From the sequence record NC_049942.1: DNA of 57,198 nt. One strand, written 5' to 3'. Origin of the DNA: Escherichia phage JLK-2012. The notes under the pieces are model-generated. The model did no database searches and was not told the origin of the DNA. It worked only from the letters and a program-made list of their open reading frames with translations. Below, one piece after another: positions 50,748-52,332 of this stretch (position 1 is the stretch's first letter; the number at the start of each line of letters is the position of its first letter). The translations under genes were made by a program, and so were the position numbers.

Positions 50748-52061
50748 ATGGCAGTAAAGATTTCAGGTGTACTGAAAGACGGCACAGGAAAACCGGTAGA
50801 GAACTGCACCATTCAACTGAAAGCCAGACGGACCAGCAACACGGTGGTGGTGAACACGGTGGCCTCTGAAAATCCGGATGAAGCCGGTCGTTACAGCATG
50901 GACGTTGAGTACGGTCAGTACAGCGTCATTCTGTTGGTGGAAGGATTCCCGCCGTCACATGCCGGGACCATCACCGTGTATGAAGATTCTCAACCGGGGA
51001 CGCTGAATGATTTTCTCGGTGCCATGTCGGAAGATGACGTCCGGCCGGAGGCACTGCGTCGTTTTGAACTGATGGTGGAAGAAGCGGCGCGTCACGCTGA
51101 GGAGGCGAAGAAGAATGCCGGAGAGGCGGAGACGTCCGCGAGGAATGCCGGCATATCAGCCAGTCAGGCAGAAGAGAGCGCTGCAAATGCTGACACTTCA
51201 GCAGGGGAGGCATCGGAGTCAGCCCGGCAGGCGGCAGAAAGTGCAGCCGCTGCAAAGAAGTCAGAGGAAGCGTCCTCGTCCTCGGCCTCTGCGGCCGCTC
51301 AAAAAGCCAGAGAGTCATTACAAAGTGCAACAGATGCTGAATTGTCAAGAAAGACGGCAGAAAGTGCAGCCGGTAATGCAGCCAGGGATGCAACGACCGC
51401 AACAGAAAAAGCCCGGGAGTCAGCAGAAAGCGCACAGTCAGCGGAACAAAGCAGGATAGCGGCGGAAGAGGCCGTAAACCGAATCCCCACCGTGGTGGGA
51501 CCTCCCGGGCCAAAGGGGGAACAGGGGCCCGCGGGTCCTCAGGGGCCGAAGGGTGATAAGGGAGAGCGCGGTGACACCGGCCCTGTCGGGGCAACCGGCG
51601 AACGGGGACCGGCAGGTGATGCTGGTCCGGCAGGCCCGCAGGGGCCGAAAGGTGACAGGGGAGAGCGGGGAGAGACCGGTCTGACGGGAAATGCAGGTCC
51701 ACAGGGTCCAAAGGGAGACACCGGGGCAGCAGGCCCGGCAGGCCCACAGGGACCGAAAGGAGAAACAGGTGCGGCTGGCCCGGTGGGGGCAACCGGACCT
51801 CAGGGACCGAAGGGCGACCCGGGGGAGACACAAATCCGTTTTCGTCTGGGGCCGGCGAGCATTATTGAGACAAACAGCAATGGCTGGTTCCCGGGTACAG
51901 ATGGTGCGCTCATCACCGGACTGACCTTTCTTGACCCCAAAGATGCCACACAGGTTGAGGGGCTGTTTCAGCATTTGCAGGTCAGATTTGGCGACGGGCC
52001 GTGGCAGGATGTCAAGGGGCTGGATGAAGTGGGCAGTGATACAGGCAGAACAGGAGAATGA
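50748..52061 (+). CDS. stf: Side tail fibre protein with collagen-like Gly-X-Y repeats
   Basis: N-terminus MAVKISGVLKDGTGKPVENCTIQLKARR... as lambda Stf; ~110 residues of uninterrupted GXY triplets; shorter than lambda Stf. Confidence 0.85.
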   Translation: MAVKISGVLKDGTGKPVENCTIQLKARRTSNTVVVNTVASENPDEAGRYSMDVEYGQYSVILLVEGFPPSHAGTITVYEDSQPGTLNDFLGAMSEDDVRPEALRRFELMVEEAARHAEEAKKNAGEAETSARNAGISASQAEESAANADTSAGEASESARQAAESAAAAKKSEEASSSSASAAAQKARESLQSATDAELSRKTAESAAGNAARDATTATEKARESAESAQSAEQSRIAAEEAVNRIPTVVGPPGPKGEQGPAGPQGPKGDKGERGDTGPVGATGERGPAGDAGPAGPQGPKGDRGERGETGLTGNAGPQGPKGDTGAAGPAGPQGPKGETGAAGPVGATGPQGPKGDPGETQIRFRLGPASIIETNSNGWFPGTDGALITGLTFLDPKDATQVEGLFQHLQVRFGDGPWQDVKGLDEVGSDTGRTGE

Positions 52062-52062
52062 C

Positions 52063-52332
52063 ATGAATATACTAAAAAAACTTATGCAGCGTCTGTGCGG
52101 TTGCGGAAAGCATGATGACCGTGAAAACGGGGAGTTACTTACAGCACAGCTGCGACTGGGACCGGCAGATATTCTGGAGTCCGATGAGAATGGCATTATC
52201 CCGGAGCAGGACAGGGTAATCACGCAGGTGGTGATACTGGATGCGGATAAAAAGCAGATACAGTGCGTGGTAAGACCGCTGCAAATTCTGCGTGCTGACG
52301 GGACGTGGGAAAATATTGGCGGGATGAAATAG
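52063..52332 (+). CDS. Hypothetical protein (89 aa) downstream of stf
   Basis: ATG 2 bp after the stf stop with CAGGAG Shine-Dalgarno; not similar to lambda Tfa. Confidence 0.5.
   Translation: MNILKKLMQRLCGCGKHDDRENGELLTAQLRLGPADILESDENGIIPEQDRVITQVVILDADKKQIQCVVRPLQILRADGTWENIGGMK

Follow-up and report, generated by a model that had tools for sequence, protein, structure and literature searches.

Collagen-like side tail fibres of lambdoid and Stx phages

The collagen-like fibre protein EPclA was described by Ghosh et al. (2012) as a stable, dumbbell-shaped trimer whose folding needs no helper (PMC3368898). Recombinant EPclA, its Col-PfC portion and the isolated C-terminal PfC domain were all found to be trimers, each of them made in E. 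coli without the 89-aa protein discussed below, and the isolated PfC trimer was able to nucleate refolding of the collagen helix (PMC3368898). For ECs2717, SEC-MALLS, CD and EM showed a trimer with a collagen triple helix and a dumbbell shape (PMC3368898). The 89-aa downstream gene is not discussed in that paper (PMC3368898).

Short-tailed Stx2 phages encode EPclB, a lateral fibre followed by a small PfC gene, the examples being ORF67/ORF68 of Sp5 (ECs1228 and its 89-aa neighbour), L0121 of 933W, and gp61/‘gp59’ of phi24B. In Sp5, Mondal et al. (2016) described ORF68 as a non-essential 89-aa polypeptide consisting of PfC only; its deletion left plaque formation and lysogenisation on K-12 intact, and no programmed frameshift signal fusing the fibre to the small gene was found (PMC5155283). 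For phi24B, the peptides VITQVVILDADKK and ADGTWENIGGMK, which occur solely in the 89-aa protein, both feature in the published table of the proteome of purified virions (bioRxiv 10.64898/2026.04.10.717836). These peptides are few, known non-structural proteins such as Lom and Bor were detected as well, the mass spectrometry database included hypothetical fusions of stf with the small gene, and the authors left the assignment open, asking ‘Spike or just gp59?’ (bioRxiv 10.64898/2026.04.10.717836). As for the tail-proximal end of such fibres, the structure of Ur-lambda (PDB 9e7m) shows that residues 1-91 of Stf form a collar domain that docks on gpV/gpM (PMC12617516).

The fibre gene and its domains

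The stretch of DNA analysed here, called the window, is the whole 57,198-nucleotide record NC_049942.1 of Escherichia phage JLK-2012, which is 100% identical to the E. coli O55:H7 DEC5E chromosome and whose PGAP annotation agrees with the gene assignments below. The side tail fibre gene, a homologue of stf of the EPclA type, lies at 50748..52061 on the plus strand, as do all the features described here, and is delimited by its open reading frame, Pfam and PGAP (WP_000268889.1, ‘prophage tail fiber N-terminal domain-containing protein’). The program-made reading frame begins at a GTG (50742-52061), but translation almost certainly begins with the ATG at 50748, giving a protein of 437 aa that opens with MAVKISGVLKDG as in lambda. 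A Pfam profile search with the fibre returned PF08400, PF01391 and PF06820.

Four domains follow each other in the order PfN, PCoil, Col and PfC. The lambda-type collar or anchor domain PfN (50748..51152, residues about 1-135) was assigned from a full-length PF08400 match (230 bits, E 7.9e-69), a match of residues 1-93 to the ‘Tail fiber protein’ of PDB 9e7m (E 2.7e-51) and a similarity to lambda orf-401, the N-terminal half of Stf, of 75% identity over 160 residues (E 3e-78). PCoil (51153..51497, residues about 136-250) is rich in Ala, Ser and Glu, which make up 70 of the 110 residues counted at 141-250 (A 35, S 19, E 16), as expected for the low-complexity PCoil of EPclA, which is about 116 aa long and has hardly any Leu, Val or Ile, and it is presumed by homology to be a trimeric coiled coil. 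The collagen-like domain (51498..51830, residues 251-361; Pfam Collagen, E 3.5e-18) is, by direct count, the longest unbroken (G-X-Y)n run of the fibre, with 37 triplets over 111 aa and Pro at 18 of the 37 X positions, a run far beyond chance expectation. The 64-aa PfC, the C-terminal trimerisation knob (51834..52025, residues 363-426), matches PF06820 over profile positions 1-64 of 64 with 120 bits, and is followed by a tail of 11 residues, up to 52058, and by the TGA stop at 52059-52061. Among 29 variants, the fibre PfC has about 10 polymorphic positions in mosaic combinations, and the last 80 residues of the fibre vary between copies at a handful of polymorphic sites.

The first-pass annotation of this DNA had recognized a lambda-like Stf N-terminus, about 110 residues of uninterrupted Gly-X-Y and an end at about 437 aa without the long C-terminal region of lambda, all of which was borne out: lambda orf-314, the distal half of Stf, gave no BLASTP alignment to the fibre better than E 2.8, and of the lambda proteins compared only orf-401 matched, at the N-terminus, while orf-314 and Tfa had no match. 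It had placed the collagen run directly after the lambda-like N-terminus, but the two are separated by the approximately 116-aa Ala/Ser/Glu segment. The description of the fibre as truncated did not hold either, since the 437-aa protein has the complete architecture of EPclA, a protein that experiments have shown to fold as a trimer, with its trimerisation knob at the C-terminus. Domain order and lengths (437 aa in all, 116 aa for PCoil and 111 aa for Col) are those given for EPclA (PMC3368898, Table 2), and from this near-identity the window fibre is expected to be trimeric, with a collagen triple helix and a dumbbell shape. The identity and intactness of the module are near certain. The module as such is already known: lambdoid prophages of the EHEC type very commonly carry this collagen-like side fibre, and it has been described before.

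The 89-aa gene downstream

The second gene of the module (52063..52332; phrog_576, PGAP WP_001023420.1) encodes an 89-aa protein with a basic N-terminal helix (residues 1-15), a variable linker (16-27) and a free-standing PfC domain (28-89). Its only Pfam match is PF06820, which covers residues 28-89 over the whole profile (1-64 of 64) with 123 bits, against a cutoff of 25, and an E of 5.3e-36, while phrog_576, ‘tail fiber protein’, aligns with positions 1-89 of 89 (E 2e-60). The PfC of the 89-aa protein and that of the fibre are 37% identical (E 9e-12). The 89-aa gene is a paralogue of the C-terminal tip domain of the fibre, as well as a homologue of Sp5 ORF68 and phi24B ‘gp59’. The gene had initially been called unrelated, which is wrong in view of this paralogy; the word is true only relative to Tfa, the earlier remark that the gene does not resemble Tfa having stood: lambda Tfa and the 89-aa protein gave zero BLASTP alignments at E <= 100, and the Pfam search returned no Caudo_TAP-type match. 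No model for the 89-aa protein was found in NCBIfam, and a PDB profile search with PfC gave nothing credible, the matches to an optineurin coiled coil (E 0.03) being set aside as noise.

In accordance with the structure prediction proposed at the outset, AlphaFold2 (AF2) modelled the 89-aa protein as a helix (residues 3-12), a disordered stretch (14-24) and a beta domain (30-86), with a pLDDT of 75 that was reached after the Salmonella clade had been added to a 19-row alignment, which by itself had yielded an unusable model (pLDDT 55).

The translation signals of the small gene are well defined. Only 1 nt separates the fibre stop from its ATG, and a Shine-Dalgarno AGGAG, read from the sequence, lies within the end of stf at 52052..52056, 6 nt before the ATG; 68 of 71 related loci share the 23-nt context of this site, AGGCAGAACAGGAGAATGACATG, without change. 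The module is closed by a Rho-independent terminator, a hairpin with a T-run at 52344..52374 (RNA fold of 52330-52385, -23.5 kcal/mol, z -4.2), and the hairpin downstream of the small gene is kept in related loci.

Purifying selection on the 89-aa gene is strong, at a dN/dS of about 0.10. Pooled over non-independent pairwise comparisons of recombining multicopy genes, as all dN/dS figures given here are, dN/dS is 0.10 for the small gene overall, 0.05 for its PfC, 0.08 for the leader and about 2.3 for the linker, and it is 0.155 for the fibre's own PfC, 0.11 for the collagen domain (27 distinct 437-aa homologues) and 0.17 for the whole fibre, which is likewise under purifying selection.

Distribution and conservation of the pair

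Among 5,426 complete E. coli genomes, 698 carry the small gene (6,365 places in all; median, 10 per genome), and a query made of PfC plus the small gene matched those same 698 genomes. In all 65 loci with an upstream fibre reading frame (65/65), the two genes are separated by a 1-nt gap. The pair is also found in isolated Stx phages, and in short-tailed Stx phages (L052, vB_EcoS_P27) Col-PfC and the small gene stand behind a different N-terminal domain. Relatives with the short Stf and the 89-aa gene as a conserved functional pair had been named as evidence that would overturn the first-pass interpretation, and in respect of conservation they do have such a pair, in about 6,400 copies in the 698 genomes. 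Among the homologues found, the 89-aa family is limited to Escherichia, Citrobacter rodentium and Salmonella, and an exhaustive profile search gave only 87 clusters. Large multi-repeat matches, such as CarboxypepD_reg and SprB-repeat proteins, look compositional or due to beta-repeats and were set aside. P0148, however, does have four PfC-like repeats before a collagen region.

A Salmonella prophage (L086; P0179/P0123) encodes a 468-aa PfN/Pf2/PfC fibre without collagen and then a 79-aa PfC gene; the two genes share 23 nt, and AGGAGG serves as the Shine-Dalgarno of the second. Comparing E. coli with Salmonella, the small proteins are 62% identical to each other, the fibre PfC domains 43%, and the cross comparisons give 32-43% identity. 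On this pattern, the duplication of PfC is taken to be old, with both copies retained in Escherichia and Salmonella.

Proposed function of the module and alternative readings

Considered together, the region very probably encodes a whole distal-fibre module of the kind usual in lambdoid and Stx prophages of EHEC/EPEC, made up of two translationally coupled genes. In the mechanism that we propose, the lambda-type N-terminal domain would dock the fibre trimer onto the tail, as the Ur-lambda structure suggests, and the Ala/Ser/Glu coiled coil together with the 37-triplet collagen triple helix would form the shaft. The 64-aa PfC would trimerise, nucleate collagen folding from the C-terminus and form a distal knob, as shown for the near-identical EPclA, and this knob would be the likely contact with the cell surface. 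A Tfa-type chaperone would be unnecessary for the window fibre because recombinant EPclA trimerises alone. With its conserved basic N-terminal helix and its own strong Shine-Dalgarno and ATG, followed by the terminator, the 89-aa gene would encode a real late protein that trimerises via PfC.

The suggestion that the distal fibre and its chaperone had been replaced or lost was right as to replacement, with coiled coil, collagen and PfC at the distal positions and no Tfa-type gene, and wrong as to loss. Had the distal fibre and chaperone been lost, the prophage would have had to be seen as decayed; what is found instead is the normal fibre of phages that disseminate Stx and effectors. A degenerate lambda Stf, non-functional after losing its distal half and Tfa and acquiring an unrelated inserted gene, would account for a fibre that is shorter than lambda Stf, without similarity to orf-314 and next to a gene with none to Tfa, in a prophage that is defective elsewhere, gene J carrying an in-frame TAG (amber codon) at 49345-49347. 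That explanation is extremely improbable, as the data on conservation and domains have already disproved it: the reading frame closes with a complete, well-scoring C-terminal domain, the architecture is exactly that of EPclA, a demonstrated folded trimer, the fibre is under purifying selection (dN/dS 0.17), some 700 genomes have about 10 copies each and isolated phages have it too, and the gene that follows encodes a homologue of the fibre tip. With the in-frame TAG in J, this prophage copy is probably incapable of giving infectious particles, whatever its fibre does. An essential role of the 89-aa protein as a Tfa/gp38-like chaperone, an analogue that replaces Tfa and is required for trimerisation of the fibre, is suggested by its classic position directly after the fibre gene, to which it is translationally coupled, and by strict co-inheritance with PfC-tipped fibres, Salmonella included. 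The available experiments argue against such a role, since the 89-aa protein was not needed for recombinant EPclA, Col-PfC or PfC to form trimers in E. coli and Sp5 lacking ORF68 is infectious; the protein also has neither sequence similarity to Tfa nor a Caudo_TAP-type Pfam match, and we regard this role as very improbable.

Mondal et al. (2016) published the idea of an ‘intragenomic reservoir’ (PMC5155283), according to which the 89-aa reading frame would mainly be a spare C-terminal cassette that is recombined onto the fibre tip, its protein being irrelevant. The two PfC copies are indeed homologous and adjacent, and there are rare hybrids: P0064 joins collagen to a small-type PfC in frame at the 11-nt microhomology GGGACCGGCAG, and P0121 joins the N-terminal half of the small gene to the C-terminal half of a fibre-type PfC. 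However, the P0064 hybrid is found right at the beginning of a contig of 3.3 kb, none of the 65 fibres in related loci carries a small-type PfC, and 37% identity makes a poor substrate for homologous recombination. A silent cassette needs no Shine-Dalgarno, ATG or leader, yet all three are conserved, the leader with a dN/dS of 0.08 and a recurrence in Salmonella; the cassette is, moreover, less diverse than the tip it would diversify (dN/dS 0.05 versus 0.155; 62% versus 43% identity between genera), and peptides of the 89-aa protein were detected for phi24B. The reservoir is on balance unlikely to be the main role of the gene. Less probable again is a moron acting on cells, either as a soluble knob set free by lysis, which would mask the fibre's receptor and so cause exclusion or prevent readsorption, or as a factor linked to the neighbouring type III effector genes. 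It would suit the position of the gene in long-tailed prophages, at the end of the late operon where lom, cor and effector cassettes accumulate, with NleG-like and SopA-like genes coming next in both E. coli and Salmonella, and also the confinement of the family to Escherichia, Citrobacter rodentium and Salmonella. On the other side, the gene has kept its close coupling to that of the fibre, it is surrounded by tail genes in short-tailed Stx phages, with no effectors nearby, and the protein has no signal peptide or lipobox, the segment MNILKKLMQRLCGCG having K/Q/R in the would-be hydrophobic core. A Cor/Llp-like exclusion lipoprotein with a Sec/SPII signal was likewise rejected when the N-terminus was read by eye: the lipobox criterion is the rule of PROSITE PS51257, and there is no hydrophobic h-region because K5, K6, Q9 and R10 precede C12 and C14.

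Our preferred reading of the 89-aa protein, tentatively held and somewhat short of an even chance, is an accessory protein that partners the tip of the fibre and can be dispensed with, and that might serve as a cap, an adaptor, or a modifier of host range or assembly. Weighing against an important part for it beside the fibre are the intact plaque formation and lysogenisation of Sp5 without ORF68, the unaided folding of recombinant EPclA, and the small number of phi24B peptides, which came together with known non-structural proteins. A more specific version, which is possible though rather doubtful, is that the protein represents a distinct kind of fibre partner, a separate protein copied from the trimerisation knob of the fibre itself, that would sit on virions at the tip and tune receptor access or host range (for example, penetration of the O-antigen) in phages that spread Stx and type III effectors; it would then be a self-derived replacement for helpers of the Tfa/gp38 type, kept from Escherichia to Salmonella. 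This knob paralogue is present in about 10 copies per EHEC genome, is strongly constrained and has peptides in a virion preparation, and knowledge of its role would help explain the host range of Stx-converting and effector-carrying phages, a modest and specialist question.

Comparison with known systems

The window fibre shares with EPclA the same domain order and lengths and the location after J and lom in a lambdoid prophage; no structural difference separates the two, and the window fibre can be regarded as an allele of EPclA. The EPclB pairs of Sp5, 933W and phi24B have a near-identical last Col, PfC knob and 89-aa gene, the small protein being 92-100% identical to that of the window, and the same 1-nt gene junction. 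They differ in the fibre itself, EPclB having 645 aa, a podovirus-type N-terminal anchor and two Col domains split by a Pf2 repeat, whereas the window fibre has one Col, and in gene position, amid the tail genes for EPclB and at the operon end in the window.

The Salmonella pair resembles that of the window in having a PfN-anchored, PfC-tipped fibre, a coupled small PfC gene, a terminator and then effector genes, and the leader of its small gene is similar as well (M-x-I-[LF]-K-K-[LI]). Its fibre shaft, in contrast, has no collagen but a Pf2 repeat and helical segments, the small protein is without the 10-residue linker of the E. coli one, and the genes overlap instead of being separated by 1 nt.

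Lambda (Ur-lambda) and the window fibre both have the collar domain, the order J, lom, stf, small gene is common to both, and both have trimeric side fibres, that of the window as expected from EPclA. In lambda, the shaft and tip comprise Pf2 repeats, a gp37-like distal coiled coil and an OmpC-binding domain; neither these nor Tfa have a counterpart in the window, where the fibre uses collagen and PfC and appears to be self-assembling. In T4 (gp37/gp38), Mu (S/U) and P2 (H/G), the helpers are unrelated in sequence to their own fibres and are needed for assembly, while the helper candidate of the window is a paralogue of the fibre tip and is dispensable in the one phage tested, Sp5.

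The side fibre is complete

The Stf homologue of the window, an open reading frame at 50742-52061 when read from a GTG, almost certainly starts as in lambda at an ATG at 50748 (MAVKISGVLKDG...), giving 437 aa. Over its first 160 residues it shares 75% identity with lambda orf-401, and its N-terminal 93 residues match PDB 9e7m (E 2.7e-51). In this structure, that of Ur-lambda, each side fibre is attached to gpV/gpM through a collar domain made of Stf residues 1-91 (PMC12617516). The longest unbroken Gly-X-Y run comprises 37 triplets (111 aa; residues 251-361, window 51498-51830; Pfam Collagen, E 3.5e-18). 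The first-pass annotation was thus right about a lambda-like N-terminus and about some 110 residues of uninterrupted triplets, which it positioned correctly, although it let the run follow the N-terminus and overlooked the Ala/Ser/Glu-rich segment of ~116 aa between the N-terminal domain and the collagen. Its observation that the protein ends at about 437 aa without the lambda C-terminal region also holds, as nothing in the fibre resembles orf-314, which is the distal Stf half in lambda. The conclusion drawn from this, a truncated fibre whose distal part was lost, does not stand: the C-terminus is a full Phage_fiber_C domain (PF06820, PfC; 64/64 profile positions, 120 bits), which had gone unnoticed.

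The fibre shares with EPclA the order of PF08400 N-terminal domain (PfN), coiled coil, collagen and PfC as well as the sizes of the whole (437 aa), the coil (116 aa) and the collagen part (111 aa) (PMC3368898, Table 2). EPclA is the commonest collagen-like prophage protein in E. coli O157:H7, being found in CP-933K/M/O/P/R/U/V and in Sp3, 4, 9, 10, 14 and 15 (PMC3368898, Table 2). Recombinant whole EPclA from a laboratory strain, its collagen-PfC fragment and the isolated PfC all form trimers, the collagen part has the CD signature of a triple helix and refolds fast after melting, with PfC as the nucleus, and the protein is a dumbbell of ~55-60 nm (PMC3368898). Since the architecture is that of this proven trimer and the N-terminus matches the Ur-lambda collar domain, the side fibre in the window is complete, its anchor being of lambda type and its shaft and tip of another kind, and is no truncated lambda Stf. 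Purifying selection acts on it, with a dN/dS of 0.17 among 27 distinct 437-aa homologues (0.11 in PfN and collagen, 0.155 in PfC and 0.40 in the coil).

The small gene carries a second PfC domain

The 89-aa gene that follows (52063-52332) gave no alignment with lambda Tfa, as had been noted, but it is not unrelated to the fibre: PfC is matched in full by residues 28-89 (123 bits, E 5.3e-36), which are 37% identical to the fibre's own copy (E 9e-12). The protein matches a dedicated 89-position PHROGs family, phrog_576 'tail fiber protein' (E 2e-60), and the gene is carried at 92-100% identity by 294 phage records, mostly of Stx-converting phages. An AF2 model (pLDDT 75) predicts that the protein starts with a helix, which a floppy linker connects to a small beta domain. 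Phage tail fibres, Mu S among them, are the best though weak structural neighbours of this domain; no export signal was seen in the sequence.

The Shine-Dalgarno AGGAG of the small gene (52052-52056) precedes the fibre stop codon TGA (52059-52061), and its ATG lies at 52063; no promoter-like or terminator-like site was found between the two genes, and a hairpin with a T-run follows the small gene (52344-52374; -23.5 kcal/mol, z -4.2). Terminator-like hairpins also occur after J (50035-50054, + strand) and after lom (50710-50731, + strand), which places stf and the small gene behind two terminators. No promoter-like site was found 5' of stf, and by analogy with lambda both genes presumably depend on Q-antiterminated late transcription.

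Two tryptic peptides exclusive to the small protein, VITQVVILDADKK and ADGTWENIGGMK, are listed for phi24B virions purified on gradients (bioRxiv 10.64898/2026.04.10.717836, supplementary proteome), under hypothetical 'Fusion_6159' entries and 'gp59_start' (ORF 39891-40295) with the row label 'Spike or just gp59?'; the text of that paper does not mention them. These unique peptides indicate that the protein is made and co-purifies with virions, their counts being low and Lom and Bor having been detected too, as contaminants. The peptides appear to be the first evidence of the small ORF at the protein level.

Conservation of the pair and role of the small protein

Among 5,426 complete E. coli genomes, 698 carry the small gene, with 6,365 occurrences in total (median 10 per genome), and a single query combining fibre PfC and small gene returns the same 698 genomes. 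The 80 IMG/VR loci hold 72 copies, every one of 89 aa, and the gap to the fibre is exactly 1 nt in all 65 copies with an upstream fibre ORF; the 23-nt context of Shine-Dalgarno, stop and ATG is identical in 68 of 71 loci. Upstream fibres have 437, 407, 440, 434 aa and other lengths, differing mostly in collagen, and among them is an EPclB of 645 aa, as in short-tailed Stx phages (locus L052; vB_EcoS_P27), whose N-terminus is unrelated, whereas the last collagen domain, PfC and the small gene are near-identical. Because these parts are shared behind an unrelated N-terminus, the unit that travels is collagen, PfC and the small PfC gene.

By Nei-Gojobori estimates pooled across 53 distinct sequences, the small gene has a dN/dS of 0.10 overall, with 0.05 for PfC and 0.08 for codons 1-15; residues 16-27 reach ~2.3, over few sites, and behave as an unconstrained linker. 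When 1.84 billion representatives were searched exhaustively with a profile, only 87 clusters came up, and the family is narrow, being confined to Escherichia, C. rodentium and one Salmonella clade. The E. coli protein is also encoded, at 94% identity, on a contig of 725 bp assigned to Xanthomonas pisi DSM 18956 (NZ_JPLE01000138.1), which is most likely E. coli prophage DNA contaminating that assembly.

The small protein is established to be dispensable for EPclA folding and for Sp5 infection of K-12; its homologue in this Stx2 phage, ORF68, is among the non-essential late genes of Mondal et al., who suggested that fibre variation could draw on it as an intragenomic reservoir (PMC5155283). Two rare natural hybrids between the PfC copies speak for such a reservoir. 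P0064 (L085:4-291) is an in-frame fusion of a collagen region with the small-type PfC, the joint lying at an 11-nt repeat, GGGACCGGCAG, that both genes contain (window ~51607-51617 in the fibre and ~52157-52167 in the small gene), and P0121 joins the N-terminal half of the small gene to the C-terminal half of a fibre-type PfC; P0064 lies right where a short contig begins and may thus be an assembly artefact. However, none of the 65 fibres bears a small-type tip, and a silent cassette predicts no selection on Shine-Dalgarno, start codon and leader, where such selection is seen. The reservoir is a live idea but a rather improbable one. We tentatively prefer, at somewhat less than even chances, a dispensable accessory protein of the fibre tip that would trimerise as PfC does.

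Prophage setting

Window 50000-53100 agrees base for base with the E. coli O55:H7 DEC5E chromosome (100% identity; NZ_CP038383.1), which has six copies of the small gene. PGAP lists there tail genes, a J pseudogene, Ail/Lom, the fibre ('prophage tail fiber N-terminal domain-containing protein'), the small gene ('phage tail fiber C-terminal domain-containing protein'), DUF1076 (NleG-type), two hypothetical genes, a DinI-like gene and chromosomal btsS, an order that sets the fibre module in a lambdoid prophage, at its right-hand end and directly ahead of effector cargo. The real defect of the window prophage lies outside this module: the tail-tip gene J (46543-50016), a PGAP pseudogene ('internal stop'), has an in-frame TAG at 49345-49347 that yields a 933-aa N-terminal product and consigns the C-terminal domain for receptor binding (PF12421) to an ORF of its own, of 215 aa. 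J is intact in the closest relative, O55:H7 USDA5905, and the window prophage is probably non-infectious unless the amber codon is suppressed.

The cargo comprises an NleG-family type III effector (52445-53020, + strand; PF06416, E 6e-46) and, on the - strand, a 413-aa protein (53352-54593; MNIQPIVQSG…) with no match in Pfam or NCBIfam, which we take to be like NleA/EspI, a 402-aa protein with no family match (55244-56452) and a DinI-like gene (56657-56905). Across this stretch GC falls from ~0.6 to 0.35-0.46.

Comparison with related systems

The module was known beforehand from the literature, Pfam, PHROGs and PGAP. BamA had been proposed as the EPclB receptor (PMC5155283); the phi24B authors now doubt this, because the lateral fibres of phage lambda_2B8 have the same module yet do not recognise BamA (bioRxiv 10.64898/2026.04.10.717836). 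In a fibre-like protein of 565 aa from another source (P0148), four units similar to the PfC C-terminal half stand in tandem (…VVVLDADAKTATGQMGILQVRRADGTWMEIPALKG…) ahead of a collagen region, so PfC-like units occur beyond C-termini.

In a Salmonella enterica prophage (L086:2888-6240, AAGWHB020000044.1), two genes, one of 100 aa and a GDSL-lipase-like one of 452 aa, come after J in the place that lom occupies in E. coli, and the order continues with a 468-aa fibre, a 79-aa PfC gene, a terminator and a SopA-like gene. Unlike the E. coli fibre, the Salmonella one has PfN, coil, a Pf2 repeat and PfC without collagen, and the 79-aa gene, with AGGAGG ahead, overlaps the fibre gene by 23 nt. The small proteins of both species share the leader motif M-x-I-[LF]-K-K-[LI]-x3-L-x-G, whereas the linker of the E. 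coli protein is absent from its Salmonella counterpart. Between E. coli and Salmonella the small-protein PfC is 62% and the fibre PfC 43% identical, with 32-43% in cross comparisons, which points to an old duplication after which both copies were retained, the free copy evolving more slowly than the fibre tip.
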